The notes beneath the pieces were generated by a model. It worked only from the letters and a program-made list of their open reading frames with translations, was not told the DNA's origin and made no database searches. 64,000 nt of DNA from Eledone cirrhosa (taxonomy: Eukaryota), in NCBI GenBank assembly GCA_964016885.1, contig OZ024742.1:72230001-72294000 (forward strand), read 5' to 3'. This document shows positions 16,716-47,352 of the stretch, piece by piece; position 1 is the stretch's first letter; each line of letters opens with the position of its first letter. The translations under genes were made by a program, and so were the position numbers.

Positions 16716-17435
16716 AAATGGAAAAGAATGAAATGAAATTTCATTTCTCACTCTTAGTACGGCTGATAAATATAAGTATGTATACGTACATACATATATG
16801 TATACAGACATACAGTAGTATGTATATATATACATACATGCACACATATATATATGTACGTATGGGTTTACCAAACATTTATTATAATGTTCGCTTTGTT
16901 TGTAAACAAACAGCCCGAATTAAGCCGTACAGTGTTTGGCAACCATCGTCGCCCTTTTGTTCAACACTGACAAAAGAACGATGAACTAGTTTCAAGCTTA
17001 TTAGCTATCGTCAGCATCATATACCTTCCTATCAGATGATTGAACGTTTGAAAGTATATACTTTCCTTATGCATATTAACGGCTGAGCAGCCTAATTTGC
17101 ATATCGAGTGAGTTAGTCAGCCGGGCATACCGAAAACGATAAATGGAAAAGAATGAAATGAAATTTCATTTCTCACTCTTAGTACGGCTGATACTTAAAT
17201 ATAAGTATGTATACGTACATACATATATGTACACAGACGTACAGTAGTATGTATATATATATACATATATGCACACATATATATATGTACGTATGGGTTT
17301 ACCGAACATTTATTATAATGTTCGGTTTGTTTGTAAACAAACAGCCCGAATTAAGCCGTACAGTGTTCGGTAACCATCGTCACCCTTTTGTTCAACACTG
17401 ACGATAGCTAATAAGCTTGAAACTAGTTAATCGTT
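16716..17435 (-). ncRNA. Dispersed ~1.6-monomer copy of the 428-bp hammerhead repeat, ending in an inverted core fragment
   Basis: Same monomer as 31558-42304. Hammerhead core on - at 16978-17020 (AUGAUG-CUGACGA-..-GAAA-CUA-GUU-CAUCGU). Inverted core piece on + at ~17398-17435. Confidence 0.8.
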
Positions 17436-19420
17436 CCAACGGAGCGCGCAAGCTTCATTTCTTTCCAATCTACGCAAGTCTTCTGCACACAGTGCCCAGG
17501 TCTTACTATCATGCAACATTGCGGGTTGTGTGCACGCATCATACAGTCTGCCTTTCATTTTGAGGAAGAAGCCTTTTGTAGCTAACAGTGCTTGTAGCTC
17601 TCTGAACTTCTTCCATCCCATTCTCACTCTGGCTACTGTACTTTCAGAACACCCACCTCTGCTGCTAATTTGGTCACCCAGGTAGCAGAATCTGTCTACT
17701 GCAACTACTGAACCTTCTTGGAATTTGATAGCTCTTGTTTCCTGTGGTTGTTTGCTGCTTACTGCCCCGGTGCGGTGGCTTCATGTAAAACCTATATTTT
17801 TAGCTAAACTACCTGAGATCCCACTACATCTCTTGTGCACCCGTAGTTTGCATTTGGGACAGAGGATAGAATTTCTACCTACACCTTTCCTACACACCGA
17901 GCAAGGCCATCTTCCTGAGGGGATCAGGGCTCTGTATTCCCTTCTACTTACTAGGAACTTATTCTTTGTCTGGTTGACTTTAAGACCCTTTGTTTCTAGG
18001 CCATGCTTCCAGGTTGGAATTTCTTCTCTAATTCTACCATAGACTCAGCTATGAGTGTAAGATCATCCACGTACAGAAGTTTCCATGGGTAGCCGGTCTT
18101 AAACTCCTTTGTATTAGAATCCTAACTTTGCTGACTGCTCCCCTCTACATGGTTTGTACAGCCTTCACAAGCCACTCATCTACTTCTCATTTTCTTAGAG
18201 CCCACCAGATTATGGCATGGGGGACTAATTCCAGGTAGAACATCTTACTTTTAACTAGGTACTTCTCCTGTAGCTGCTTCACCAGAAAGAGAGCATCTGT
18301 TGTGCTTTTACCTGGCACAAATCCAAACGGCATCTCATCTAAATTTACCTGGTACCTAATCAGCTGTTATTTTCATGACCTGGTCCATCAACTTGATGCC
18401 TCTATAGTTTCCTCTATCTAGTGCATCTCCTTTGCACTTGTAGCAGTTGACAAAGATGCTGCTGCGCCAATCATTCAGTTTGACACCATTTGGTTAACAA
18501 GACGTGTGGTTAAGGTGTGACCCACTGACCCAGATGCTTTCAGCATCTTGGCTACTATCCCCAATGGAGTAGCTACTACACTGTTGCTGACTTGTACGGT
18601 TGGGCCCTCTGTAGGGTCCACTTGGGGTAGGGTCTCTTTCTTCCATGCATTCTGTTCATCATCATCATTTAACGTCCATCTTCCACGCTGTTATCTTTCA
18701 CAATGGCTCTTCCATGTTACTTTCTTTTCAGCATCTGTGAGGGCAAGTACACCTTTATCATCACAGACTCACTTCTTACCAATGACATCACAATTTTCCC
18801 TAACGCACTGCCTCACAATCCTGAACACCTCATGTTTCTGGTCTTCATGATGCAAAGCATGCTTGAATTTTTTATCTTCTGCTTTCCTCCTTACTAAGTA
18901 TACTTGTTGTCTAGCTTCCCTCTGGCGTCTATATAGTGTACCCTGCTTCCCACATTCTTCCATTTTTTCAATGCTTGTCTCTTGGCCTTAATTTTCTCAT
19001 CTACCTTACTGTTCTACCACCAAGTCGCTCTCCTTCTCTCTATAGTCCTGCTCCATCCACAGATCTCATCTGTCACTTTCAGTAGATTATCTTTTGGGAA
19101 CTCCAAATGCTCTTCTATATTGAACATCTCAATCCGTTTTTCCTTATAGGCACCGAGAAAAATCTCTCTAAATTTGTTACTGGCTGAGGGCTCTTTCAAC
19201 ATCCATTTCCTTCTCATCCACGTTGCCCTCTGTCTCCAAGTTCATCTAGCTCTGATAATGAAGTCTACTAGGTTATGTTGGGAAGTGCATTCCTCTCCAG
19301 GGAAGGATTTTGTGTTTACCACCGTCACTCTATCTTGTTCTCTGGTAAGGATAAAATCTATCTGACAAACATGTTCACTAGATCTACAGGTGATCAGTTG
19401 ATTGTTGAGTTTTTTGAAGT
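17436..19420 (-). mobile_element. Degenerate RTE LINE (APE end to RT)
   Basis: NFKKLNNQLITCRS..QIDFIL, GWKKFRELQALL and a zinc-finger remnant; many disablements. Confidence 0.8.
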
Positions 19421-20313
19421 TTGTGAAGCAAATACATTTCATATCACATATTAAACCACTGCATGTAGGGACATCCCTACATGCAGTGGTTTAATATGTG
19501 ATATGAAATGTATTTGCTTTTGCTGTTTACCCCATGTCATCCTTGATCAAACAAATCCATGATCAAAGATATTCCAATCTTTTTGTATTTCTACCATTGT
19601 TCTTTGTGCCCTTCTTTTTTAAAGATGGTAGAGTGTGATTTGGAATAAGCATATCATCTAAAAGTTTTCTAAAACTATTTGTATATATATATATATATAT
19701 ATATATATACAAATATATATATATTCTGTGACGCCAGTGATCTATAGATATGTAACACAAACTTCAAAAAACTCAACAATCAACTGATCACCTGTAGATC
19801 TGGTGAACATGTTTGTCAGATAGATTTTATCCTTACCAGAGAACAAGATAGTGTGACAGTGGTAAACACAAAATCCTTCCCTGGAGAGGAATGCACTTCC
19901 CAACATAACCTAGTAGTAATGTTGGTCCTCCTAAACCTCAAATATTTGAAGTGTTTGATCTGCAGTTGTATCCAAATATTAAACTTCTTACATACGTACA
20001 GTTGGTTTGCTAAGAGTTGATCTGGTGATGATCATAATCATCACTATTTTACATCTTTTTTCTGTGCTGGCATAGGTCAAACGGGTTGTCATATTCTGAG
20101 ATTTGACATGTCAGATGACTACGTCTTGTTCATACATTTTATTTTGGCATGGTTTCTACTGAAACATGCTCTTCCTAATGCCAACCACTTTACAATGTGT
20201 ATTGGGTTAATATTATTTTGGTGCCATCAACAACAACAATAATAAAAAAACAACAGAAACCAAAACAACAAAAATAACGAGTTACATAGACAGATGTAAT
20301 TATTAGCCCTTAC

Positions 20314-20436
20314 CTGGTATATTTGTTTTAAGTTTTCCTGAAAGACATGATCCTGTGACTGGATTGCAAACCTCAGAACTATTGCGACAATTACATGGTT
20401 GACTGCAATCTTTACCAAACCAATAATTAGCGCATC
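20314..20436 (-). CDS. Host gene exon: EGF/laminin-EGF-like (MEGF10/SREC-type) module
   Basis: Acceptor ttcactctag and donor GTAAGG; 123 nt, phase 1-1. Encodes (R)CANYWFGKDCSQPCNCRNSSEVCNPVTGSCLSGKLKTNIP. The ORF track lists a different frame here. Confidence 0.85.
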
Positions 20437-45522: not shown

Positions 45523-46088
45523 TGTTAGCGAAATCTGTCCGCGCCTTGAACTTTGGGTGATACCTAAAGGTTAAATTCTCGGCCAACACCCTTTTGGTGT
45601 AGACAGGTTGATGTGTTGACTATCCCCTCAAGGTGGGTGACAGGAAGTGACAGGTATATAAAGCCTGTGCTATCATCCCACTCAAGGAGAAACACCGGAG
45701 CATTACACCTATAACTAACTATGTAAGGATTTACTGCTATCAATAAACCCCAGTGGTCTACAGCCAGAGACATCGGAGCATTACGCTAGCAACTAACTAT
45801 GTAAGGATTCACTGCTATCAACAGACCCCAGTGGTCTACAGAAATACCCAGAGCAGCCTCACATCAGCAACAATAACAACATTAACAACTCTTGGTAACT
45901 GTTTTATATTGTACCTTTTTAATTGATTCACGTGAAGTAAACCATATATAAACCAAATCACCTATTCTTATTATTCATGTTATTTCCTCTAACAATTTTG
46001 TTATTACATTTAACAATCTTGTTATTATCACATCTAAATAACCACATATATCCATCTAACTTTTAATTCATTTTAACCTTTCGTTAAA
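45523..46088 (+). mobile_element. Solo LTR-like element in (TA)n
   Basis: Starts TGTTAGCGAA and ends TTCGTTAAA. TATA-like ggtatataaag at ~45653 and AATAAA at ~45742; internal ~79-bp duplication. Confidence 0.6.
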
Positions 46089-46168
46089 TATATATATATA
46101 TATATATATATATATATATATATATATATATATATATATATATATATATATATATATATATATATATA

Positions 46169-47352
46169 TTACAAACACACGGAGCATTATAATAAATGTT
46201 CGGTGAATCCATACGTACATATATATATGTGTGCATGTATGTATATATATATATACATACTACTGTACGTCTGTATACATATATGTATGTACGTGTACAT
46301 ACTTATATTTAAGTAACAGCCGTACTAAGAGTGGGAAATGAAATTTCGTTTCATTTTTTCCGTTTATCTTATCGTTTTCGGTGCACCCGGCCGATTAACC
46401 CACTCGATATGCAAATTGGGCTTCTCAGCTGTTAATATGCATAAGGTAAGTATATACGTTCAACAATCTGACAGGAAGGTATACGTTGCTGACGATAGCT
46501 AATAAGCTTGAAACTAGTACAGCGTTCCTTTGTCAGTGTTGAACAAACGAGCAACGATAGTTGCTGGACACTACGGCTTAATAAGGGATGTTTGTTTACA
46601 AACACACCGAGCATTATAATAAATGTTCGGTGAATCTATACGTACATATATATATATGTGTGCATGTATGTATATATATATACATACTACTGTACGTCTG
46701 TATACATATATGTATGTACGTGTACATACTTATTTAGCAGGGTGGTAGAATGATTGAAGGTCGTTAGTTGCCAATGTGGTAAGTAATAGTATCCTTGTTG
46801 AATTATCTTGTCGACATAGACGTGAGGGAAGGTCCCTCGATCTATTTACCATCTTTGTATTTACGATATTCCTTTCGTCAGGTCGCCAATTCCAGCAGCA
46901 TGGATTATAGATGTTATTGAGACACGAGTAACATAATAATGATTTCAACAGCAGAAATTAGAGATGAAATGTATGTTTATTTTTGATGTAGCACAAACAA
47001 TGTTTGTTAACTTATATGGTTGAAGTTACAGATAAAAAGGTTACAAAAGGGAATGTGCCATTGCGCTGGAAAGCCGGCGAGGCTAGGGTGCAATATCTCA
47101 CTGTTACATTATGCGTGTTGCTGGCTCGAAGTTCCTGGTACAAGAGAGAGATTCTTCAAATCTTCGCGGGGAATTTCTTCCTCAGGGCGCGTAGGGATAC
47201 ATCCTCTTCTACTGGCGCTGATTGGCTGAACTGAGCCAAATCACGCACAGAGAATGTATGTGAGCCCGCGGAATGTAGGTCACTACACTTATATTTAAGT
47301 AACAGCCGTACTAAGAGTGGGAAATGAAATTTCGTTTCATTTTTTCCGTTTA
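46169..47352 (+). ncRNA. Dispersed ~1.5-monomer copy of the 428-bp hammerhead repeat in the opposite orientation, interrupted by a solo LTR
   Basis: Intact core on + at 46483-46525 (ACGTTG-CTGACGA-TAGCTAATAAGCTT-GAAA-CTAGTA-CAGCGT). Flanked by (TA)n and (TG)n. Confidence 0.85.
46734..47287. mobile_element. Solo LTR-like insertion with 5-bp TSD CTTAT
   Basis: CTTAT at 46729-46733 and 47288-47292; ends CACTACA and begins T(G)TAGCAG. The monomer sequence rejoins across it. Confidence 0.7.

Follow-up and report, generated by a model that had tools for sequence, protein, structure and literature searches.

The window, a 64,000-nt stretch of the Eledone cirrhosa genome (contig OZ024742.1), carries at three loci a non-coding repeat of 428 bp with a predicted minimal type I hammerhead ribozyme. 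We propose that this monomer is a non-autonomous hammerhead repeat of the non-LTR retrozyme type, retrotransposed in trans by the reverse transcriptase (RT) of an endonuclease-bearing Penelope-like element (PLE), a reading to which we give a probability of roughly 0.88. We favour mobilisation in trans by a PLE because the insertions have two fixed 3' ends 59 nt apart, target (TA)n, are randomly truncated at the 5' end and, where two arms lie back to back, have one of the two ends on each arm and arms of the same sequence variant. A sequence-only reading of the window had suggested mobilisation by a GIY-YIG PLE with target priming at (TA)n; non-random ends, distinct variants and unshared immediate flanks bear this out.

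A hammerhead repeat at three loci

Units are numbered q1 to q428 from a natural unit (window positions 37116-36689, minus strand), with the predicted ribozyme cut placed after q153. The copies in the window are compared as loci A, B and C, and two insertion ends found genome-wide are named T (q428) and N (q369).

16714-17402, minus strand: locus A, main arm; 1.6 units of a diverged variant, q166 to q428, its 3' end (site T) adjoining (TA)n
16714-16772, minus strand: tail of A (q370-428, the N-to-T interval; site positions taken from genome-wide ends)
16984-17014, minus strand: hammerhead core of A, predicted cut 3' of 16984
17398-17437, plus strand: inverted arm of A (q123-162, 40 bp), with a second ribozyme core
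31556-42304, minus strand: locus B, an array of 25 ribozyme cores in units of 425-431 bp
31835-31865, minus strand: last hammerhead core of B, 279 nt ahead of the T end
46169-47353, plus strand: locus C, 1.5 units running from q232 to q428; bounded by (AT)41 at the 5' end and by AT(GT)29 at the 3' end, which is at T
46489-46519, plus strand: hammerhead core of C
46734-47286: unrelated 553-bp insert within C at q362-367, with 5-6 nt of duplicated target; it looks like a solo LTR
47294-47353, plus strand: tail of C (q370-428)

All three loci end at one junction, TTTCC(G/A)TTTAT at q428 (16714, 31556 and 47353), against (TA)n in A, (TA)16 in B and AT(GT)n in C. The sequence-only reading had noticed this single stop point, and its positions of 16716, 31558 and 47352 denote the same junctions, because the final 3-4 bases are common to repeat and microsatellite. 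The calculated probability of three identical ends arising by chance over 428 positions is ~5e-6. The junction had been estimated to lie ~277 nt past the predicted cut rather than at it, and it measures 270 nt in A, 279 nt in B and, after subtraction of the 553-bp insert and its 6-nt overlap, 275 nt in C. The 5' ends differ, again as first noticed: A stops at q166 and continues into the inverted piece, B stops at ~q371 (42304, against (TA)38) and C at q232 (46169), (TA)n thus flanking B and C at this end too. The short inverted segment reported at 17.4 kb proves to be the 40-bp arm of A, joined to the main arm through ~5 nt of overlap. The window loci have T ends only and none at N; the N end of A's inverted arm is out of view because another repeat begins at 17435.

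Loci A, B and C are separate insertions: they are different sequence variants, and their immediate flanks, which the earlier reading had proposed to compare as a check against segmental duplication, are not shared. They are 90-94% alike (B and C monomers 94%; A 91.9% to B and 89.6% to C), with 96.9% identity between A's own units and 99% between the two partial units of C.

The monomer combines a type I hammerhead with tandem units inside the 150-450 bp retrozyme range. The hammerhead fold (core, stems I-III and a palindromic short helix III) is recognisable, with 95% of alignment cells paired, and across families 6 of 13 stem pairs carry two-sided, compensatory changes (5 distinct rows). The ribozyme is compact, with a helix III span of 6 nt and a stem II of 14-18 nt, and a few cores of the monomer family have point changes. 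An Rfam scan gave no hits at the gathering score for the monomer ribozyme. The G10.1-C11.1 closing pair typical of hammerheads is absent; stem II closes with U·U in the monomer family and in an 82% relative, and with G-C in a sister family, R2. Minimum-energy folding of the monomeric core yields no hammerhead (z -0.38). As for RT or endonuclease coding, all tblastn matches to PLE proteins lay outside monomer runs.

Insertions end at two fixed sites genome-wide

Exact junctions of T with TA number 2,725 in the whole genome, beside 2,937 read-throughs of T, and exact junctions of N with TA, 59 nt upstream, number 3,956. The TA-like control site q82 gave 7 junctions with TA, a raw count not scaled to q82's own read-through, and reversed-pattern controls gave 0. 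For individual ends we used 63 merged loci chosen by an exact ribozyme 40-mer, with 96 visible 3' ends; the first 30 loci, chosen for a full q1-428 match, were excluded from end counts. T accounts for 48 of the 96 ends (36 exactly), N for 36 (22 exactly) and other positions for 12, and TA adjoins 79 of them. The sequence-only reading had named random end points genome-wide as the outcome that would count against it; 3' ends instead concentrate at T and N. Its fixed 3' end thus stands at T across the genome, but not as the sole one, N being a second that bounds a 59-nt tail. By comparison, 5' ends are scattered (96 in the 63-locus sample, at most 4 per position, and 48 more in end-selected loci), with no pile-up at the predicted ribozyme cut; ribozyme cleavage does not set insertion ends. 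The 5' end of locus B near N is not a general rule, since no 5' end among the 96 sampled comes as close as 4 nt to q370. Two tail-bracketing fixed 3' ends, variable 5' truncation, partial tandems and (TA)n targets are the features of endonuclease-bearing (EN+) PLEs. A target-site duplication is not discernible within (TA)n.

Both sites are conserved in R2, which matches the monomer in 290 of 420 columns (69% identity) and whose ends lie at sites homologous to T and N; the tail sites have been kept across 31% divergence.

Back-to-back insertions use one site per arm

Insertions may consist of two arms back to back. Of 50 such pairs that could be classified, 49 combine a T end on one arm with an N end on the other. 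The 63-locus sample holds 31 pairs: 25 N+T, 1 T+T, 0 N+N and 5 with an unassigned end (p=4e-7). Pairs taken from coordinate lists were N+T in 19 of 19 cases, 11 of them new, and a third set gave 19 unique N+T pairs, 0 homotypic, 4 other and 4 cut by an edge. The same asymmetry is found in autonomous PLE families of this genome (Hydra- and Neptune-type; 13 of 14 divergent end pairs heterotypic) and in R2 (2 of 2). Diagnostic alleles agree between the arms of a pair at 105 of 120 sites, against 49% between loci, and rare variants are common to both arms at 12% against 1.5%. The other 15 sites differ, so not every pair derives from one homogeneous template.

In the mechanism that we propose, PLE protein would bind a structured element at about q340-q428, as PLE biochemistry suggests, on a template RNA longer than one cleaved monomer, either an uncleaved multimer or a circle. 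The protein would nick (TA)n on both strands, and cDNA would start internally, from q428 at one nick and from q369 at the other; the two cDNAs would then be joined at their truncated ends by microhomology or short fillers, and loss of one arm would leave a single-armed insertion. We lean slightly towards a single protein dimer making both starts in a concerted, asymmetric way. In vitro, start-site use shows no strand difference (Frangieh et al., 2024; PMC11167929), and the strict N+T pairing is therefore still without a biochemical explanation. We offer a broader proposal more speculatively, and think it rather less probable than its opposite: PLE integration in general would be concerted and asymmetric, one RT-endonuclease dimer gripping a single ~90-nt RNA element and starting one cDNA at each tail edge on opposite target strands, and the retrozyme lineage (R1, the 82% relative and R2) would have lost its autonomous parent and survive, possibly as circular RNA, by offering this structure to unrelated PLE proteins. 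If so, any RNA carrying the tail could be inserted from two ends, the tail serving as a transferable cis-signal.

Alternative modes of mobility and alternative templates

It is very improbable that DNA recombination or segmental duplication dispersed the repeat as a satellite, with TA microhomology determining the breakpoints. Both T and N have 3-4 bases in common with (TA)n, arrays did expand by DNA duplication, and B and C have an old inverted repeat in common in their 5' flanks. However, q82 has longer TA microhomology and yet yields only its 7 junctions against thousands at T and N; the polar bias, 3' ends fixed and 5' ends random, argues against recombination, which also gives no reason for N+T pairing; and the B/C flank repeat is much more diverged (73% over 186 nt) than the B and C monomers (94%). 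A DNA transposon of foldback or Helitron-like type, with N and T as its termini, is comparably far-fetched. Paired insertions do resemble inverted-repeat elements with two defined termini, but the internal inversion joint differs from pair to pair, local duplicates excepted, copies with a single arm, ending at N or at T, are frequent, and RT-encoding PLEs of the same genome have the same architecture.

Within PLE-mediated retrotransposition, the template could be mainly a ribozyme-made circular monomer copied round more than once by the PLE RT, as in the rolling reverse transcription of a circle first suggested for this window. We consider this possible but doubtful. Runs longer than one unit make up 49 of 96 in the sample chosen for an intact ribozyme, and in end-selected loci 19 of 48 arms continue past the cut, whereas just 3 have their end within 8 nt of it (~2 expected by chance); since few arms stop at the cut and many pass it, the main template is not the cleaved linear monomer. 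Two loci (L039 and L013) have adjacent full units of identical sequence, tandem neighbours have rare variants in common at 16% against 1.5% between loci, the ribozyme stems covary, and circles are documented in other metazoan retrozymes (PMC7229834). An uncleaved multimeric transcript, however, predicts the same read-through and fits equally well. Units differ within other loci and arrays (L053, L051, L063, B, L081 and L082), at odds with a circular template; the U·U closure of stem II and the minimum-energy fold count against it too, PLE ribozymes cleave weakly (PMC4209133), and the dominant in vitro substrate is unprocessed RNA (PMC11167929). Locus B contains an 8-unit higher-order duplication, so its 25-unit array is not one rolling product, and long arrays such as B grew in place by later tandem duplication. 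A 420/422 dimer pattern in L048 and L081 does not reflect one source dimer, the copies differing by 10-22 mismatches.

Autonomous PLEs and the search for a partner

The decayed PLE reported beside the repeats is genuine.

54610-57930, plus strand: decayed Hydra-clade PLE with stops and frameshifts, not homologous to the monomer, ending at its own first site against (TA)n
54610-54720: its inverted 5' piece
57740-57864: its hammerhead, a different ribozyme from the monomer's

Its family has an RWK-like motif, DKT, a CxCX5C linker, a C-terminal GIY-YIG without CCHH, a hammerhead and a (TA)n target. The motifs were read by eye on intact members (L131/L133: RWR, DKT, CNCxxxxxC) against section 11 of Craig 2021 (PMC8557442), and the clade name has no tree behind it; a Pfam scan of the Hydra ORF gave no significant match. 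The family matches the monomer only by TA-rich or 20-nt chance hits, and its tail is 137 nt long against 59 nt, which leaves this neighbour at most a candidate partner.

Another candidate (L229/L067) was searched by eye for a CxxC linker, CCHH in the C-terminal GIY-YIG, a DKG-like motif and a hammerhead; 'Neptune-type' is here a label from motifs read by eye and not from phylogeny. That the partner is of this type rather than a Hydra element such as the neighbour seems to us marginally short of an even bet. The distances from cut to first site to second site are 163+60 nt in the Neptune-type family, 216+59 in the monomer and 72+137 in the neighbour's Hydra family; the compact ribozyme is common to monomer and Neptune type, Hydra ribozymes being longer; and 10,680 motif hits count towards a Neptune-type partner. 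On the other side, the full Neptune-type unit has no homology to the monomer among the matches listed, the T-rich monomer tail resembles Hydra 3' regions, the tail of Hydra family F1 contains a 12-nt word also found at site T (a post hoc, low-complexity match), and in three loci (L006, L076 and L083) the monomer is preceded by Hydra sequence fused to it in the same orientation, perhaps through template switching or by plain insertion.

The sequence-only reading had expected an autonomous Penelope element whose pLTR matches the monomer. None with monomer-homologous ends was found among ~9 Hydra families, 2 Neptune-type subfamilies and 5 other RT families sampled, several motif-defined families having no 3' ends in view. 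Among the matches listed, a profile of 7 natural units recovered only family members and TA-rich noise from the sampled loci, and 7 stretches of five RYVDD families, one of them without PLE sequence, showed no homology to the monomer. Hydra family F5 drew attention because 3 of its loci have 76-82% monomer relatives nearby and a fourth contains the monomer, but these are separate insertions beyond or beside its ends, with no homology. In L006, L065 and L083 a Hydra ORF lies upstream of the monomer, but the three differ in family and in the q position of the join, and were likewise rejected as parents.

Relationship to known systems

The movement of animal hammerhead repeats has so far been argued from co-occurrence and sequence likeness, and the thousands of T and N junctions are direct genomic evidence for the class of mobiliser. 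Metazoan non-LTR retrozymes, as described in the consulted parts of Cervera and de la Peña (2020; PMC7229834) and Li, Clavereau and Pollet (2026; bioRxiv 10.64898/2026.07.22.740005), resemble the monomer in their tandem, non-coding 150-450 bp units with a type I hammerhead in each, in their dispersal as monomers, dimers and arrays, and in having PLEs as proposed mobilisers. In those parts the argument rests on co-occurrence and on pLTR homology or phylogeny, without insertion-end mapping, whereas the monomer has ends with the PLE tail signature and no homologous pLTR found; cleavage and circles are demonstrated for some published families, whereas the cut of the monomer is a predicted one. The PLE link of such repeats is thus already in print; the portions consulted contain neither the junction evidence nor the strict pairing, on which Fig. 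S2 of PMC11167929 and the preprint supplements may bear.

For the autonomous PLE PAc/Poseidon, Frangieh et al. (2024; PMC11167929) described two internal RT start sites, AT-rich cutting, extension of both strands, a predicted dimer and dispensable ribozyme cleavage. As in the monomer, the two starts bracket a tail downstream of the hammerhead. PAc/Poseidon differs in that its starts lie inside the ORF in an AC-rich stem-loop, its tail is 30-40 nt long and the strands do not differ, whereas the monomer is a non-coding RNA with a 59-nt tail and two sites split strictly between arms. Its tail exceeds the published length, yet the autonomous families here have tails of 60 and 137 nt. With both start sites mapped on a small, non-coding template, the questions of mobiliser and integration become testable in the existing in vitro assay.

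Non-autonomous PLE derivatives with multicopy head-to-tail insertions are known as Chlamys elements such as MRC1 (Craig 2021; PMC8557442), which, unlike the monomer, usually have a 3' end like that of an autonomous family and mostly have no canonical hammerheads. In EN+ PLEs, pLTRs are enough for trans-mobilisation (Arkhipova 2013, PMC3846280; Craig 2021, PMC8557442), and the tail, often at one end only, with an inverted 5'-truncated copy and (TA)n targets (Craig 2021; PMC8557442), is a signature described as unique to PLEs. Penelope, Naiad, Hydra and Neptune (PMC3846280, PMC8557442) share with the monomer 5' truncation, partial tandems, the inverted 5'-truncated copy, (TA)n targets and an optional tail on one inverted pLTR. 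This architecture has been published qualitatively for coding elements, whereas here it is counted, at 49 of 50, in an ORF-less ribozyme monomer; the near-absolute rule of one tail per insertion, which also holds in autonomous families, constrains the still unsettled mechanism of PLE integration.

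Three window loci of the hammerhead monomer

R1, a 428-bp non-coding hammerhead monomer, occupies three loci in the window:

Locus A, 16714-17402, hammerhead on the minus strand
Locus B, 31556-42304, array, hammerheads on the minus strand
Locus C, 46169-47353, hammerhead on the plus strand

All three share the 428-bp unit, with one minimal type I hammerhead per unit; in numbering counted on a natural unit (q1-q428), the predicted ribozyme cut falls after q153. As the sequence-only reading had claimed, A, B and C have the same 3′ end, at q428 and adjoining a TA microsatellite, which lies not at the predicted cut but 270-279 nt beyond it (~277 nt in that reading), and their 5′ ends vary: q166 plus a 40-bp inverted piece in A (the 17.4-kb end), about q371 in B and q232 in C. 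That reading's preference for independent insertion over segmental duplication also holds: the loci are 89.6-94.4% identical to one another (partial units inside one locus, 96.9% in A and 99% in C), and the only flank similarity is between B and C, whose 5′ flanks share an old inverted repeat (73% over 186 nt). The three loci are separate insertions. The old repeat (42410-42872 and 45517-46085; 68-73%, with a microsatellite at each outer edge), which B and C entered separately, is possibly a decayed TIR element around a 76-80-bp tandem array. Inside C sits a 553-bp sequence unrelated to the monomer (46734-47286), with solo-LTR-like termini, a 5-6 nt duplicated target (q362-367) right at q369, and a single 68-bp match, in the sampled locus L157.

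Ends and arm pairing across the genome

The exact ribozyme 40-mer occurs 4,586 times in the genome. From the 100 places that head the list, our end sample took those lying within 63 Mb of one contig (C1), less the last 8 and less the middle of one long array; 63 merged loci resulted, with 98 runs of at least 84% identity and at least 60 nt, 2 of which, at locus edges, were dropped. Half of the remaining 96 runs (48) end at q415-428 (site T; 36 exactly at q428) and 36 end at q358-373 (site N; 22 exactly at q369), with 12 ending elsewhere; TA adjoins 79 of the 96, and 5′ ends are scattered. Genome-wide, exact junctions of T with TA number 2,725 (T read-through, 2,937) and of N with TA 3,956, versus 7 at q82, an internal control with longer TA microhomology that is not normalised to its own read-through. 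End points are thus non-random genome-wide, and the single fixed 3′ end of the sequence-only reading is one of two: T stands, and N, separated from it by a 59-nt tail, is equally a genome-wide end. No sampled run has a 3′ end within 10 nt of the predicted cut. In 40 further regions chosen solely for their end pattern, the 48 arms include 3 that start within 8 nt of the cut and 19 that extend beyond it. The R1 RNA template must extend past the predicted cut.

A frequent form of insertion consists of two arms placed back to back. The 63 merged loci contain 31 such pairs: 25 N+T, no N+N, five with one unassigned end and a single T+T, one arm of which halts at q421 without TA. End-pattern coordinates alone gave N+T in 19 of 19 pairs, 11 of them outside the 31-pair sample. 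The end-picked regions yielded 19 unique N+T pairs, none homotypic, four other and four cut by a region edge (two pairs are local duplicates; one partner, wrongly assigned automatically, was correct in the reciprocal row). With the three samples combined without overlaps, 49 of 50 classifiable pairs are N+T. The two arms have diagnostic alleles in common at 105 of 120 sites (49% between loci), and rare variants are common to both in 12%, versus 1.5% within a subfamily at equal overall divergence (3.4%); gaps at the joints range from -3 to +43 nt.

The predicted ribozyme and related repeats

An Rfam search returned no match for the monomer hammerhead. Across R1, an 82% relative and the sister family R2, 95% of the cells in its three stems are paired and 6 of 13 stem pairs show two-sided changes (5 distinct rows only in both cases); slid-alignment controls gave 23-50% pairing. 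Helix III is a short palindrome, the kind described in PMC4209133 as needing a dimer. The base of stem II is U·U in R1 where R2 has the usual G-C, so the activity of the predicted R1 ribozyme is uncertain.

The 468-bp R2 unit aligns with R1 over its full length (290 of 420 columns, 69% identity; score 328, shuffles 126±14). R2 has 3′ ends at sites homologous to N and T (3 copies each), and both of its back-to-back pairs are heterotypic. An intermediate subfamily, 76-82% identical to R1, also ends at both sites.

Copies of R2 and of the intermediate subfamily in sampled genomic loci

L002 2200-3429, R2
L004 649-1286, R2
L030 197-911, R2
L045 1992-2314, R2
L174 570-895, R2
L175 583-640, R2; minimal two-armed insertion, ~60 bp
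L152 1607-3023, intermediate
L161 2176-2555, intermediate
L179 5783-6330, intermediate

A third tandem hammerhead family (L054 19-490, 291-bp unit) has an end at (TA)n, and another small hammerhead-bearing family occurs in the window as inverted pieces beside microsatellites (53597-53740 and 53914-54130). Contigs of two other organisms match the ribozyme region in pieces of 126-226 nt (runs X5 and X6), so the R1 family is not limited to this species.

Penelope-like elements of the genome

The genome is rich in Penelope-like elements (PLEs), with 7,620 motif matches for Hydra reverse transcriptase (RT), 10,680 for Neptune-type endonuclease and 2,028 for another RT motif. Of 14 divergent end pairs in its PLE families, 13 are heterotypic; the remaining one spans a monomer insertion. 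The window PLE is a Hydra by its motifs, with intact relatives having an open frame of 828-834 aa; its ribozyme differs from the monomer's and its tail is 137 nt. Behind it (57990-58480) lie end fragments of two further PLE families, one matching the L188 pLTR ribozyme (minus strand) and the other the Neptune-type pLTR of L229; shared (TA)n tracts here accumulate PLE ends. In Hydra family F5 (L179 1311-4666) the open frame is 712 aa long and two ends lie ~90 nt apart; a scan of the F5 3′ region found no canonical hammerhead, although this motif is reportedly universal among Hydra elements. The intermediate subfamily lies near 3 of 7 F5 loci and R1 itself in a fourth, above other families in a small sample. 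RYVDD-type RT families (L230-L235), whose ORF appears to stop less than ~1 kb from the motif and which have a hammerhead-like, non-canonical motif near the 3′ end, are possibly N-terminal-endonuclease (Naiad-like) PLEs.

Mobilisation and template

Fixed ends, TA targets, arm pairing and a template variant common to the arms are established for R1. Together with the heterotypic ends of the PLE families themselves, they argue that R1 is mobilised in trans by a PLE, as the sequence-only reading had proposed (probability about 0.88). A PLE RT-endonuclease would act in trans on R1 RNA, starting one cDNA from N and, on the opposite strand, another from T, and the truncated cDNAs would then be joined to each other; we lean slightly towards a concerted asymmetric dimer performing both starts. 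Among the families sampled, an incomplete set, we found no autonomous parent and no pLTR matching the monomer, the match that reading had set as a check. Spacing favours a Neptune-type partner (163+60, versus 216+59 in the monomer); base composition and a small number of fusions point to a Hydra. In L006, L076 and L083, Hydra ORF or pLTR sequence is fused directly 5′ of the monomer in the same orientation, possibly by template switches between Hydra and monomer RNAs.

That reading had also suggested rolling copying of a circular RNA. Identical neighbouring units in L039 and L013 agree with a circle; in L053, L051 and L063 the units are mixed, which agrees with a multimer. A mainly circular template seems rather unlikely. 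Array B grew in place: its adjacent units differ by 5-24 bases, whereas the copies of a repeated 8-unit block differ by 0-3 per unit. Further long arrays with local higher-order structure (51.77-51.79 Mb on contig C1, comprising L082 and L083; L081, with perfect AB dimers; L048) are candidate sources of multimeric transcripts.

Comparison with known systems

One PLE protein cleaves AT-rich DNA on both strands, and its reverse transcription begins, with no need for ribozyme cleavage, at two internal sites bracketing a genomic tail termed unique to PLEs (Frangieh 2024, PMC11167929); the R1 ends match this pattern of two sites bracketing a tail. Inverted 5′-truncated copies in which one end bears the tail are described by Craig 2021 (PMC8557442) and Arkhipova 2013 (PMC3846280), non-autonomous head-to-tail PLE derivatives in Chlamydomonas by Craig 2021, and circles and PLEs are already proposed for retrozymes by Cervera 2020 (PMC7229834). 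Li 2026 (bioRxiv 10.64898/2026.07.22.740005) used co-occurrence and pLTR phylogeny to argue for a PLE origin and termed the mechanism unresolved. Our literature search, of papers outside subscription, found neither a mapping of a pair of fixed ends in any animal retrozyme nor a count of N+T-type arm pairing. The kind of element is already known; what is added here is junction-level evidence and a strict pairing rule.
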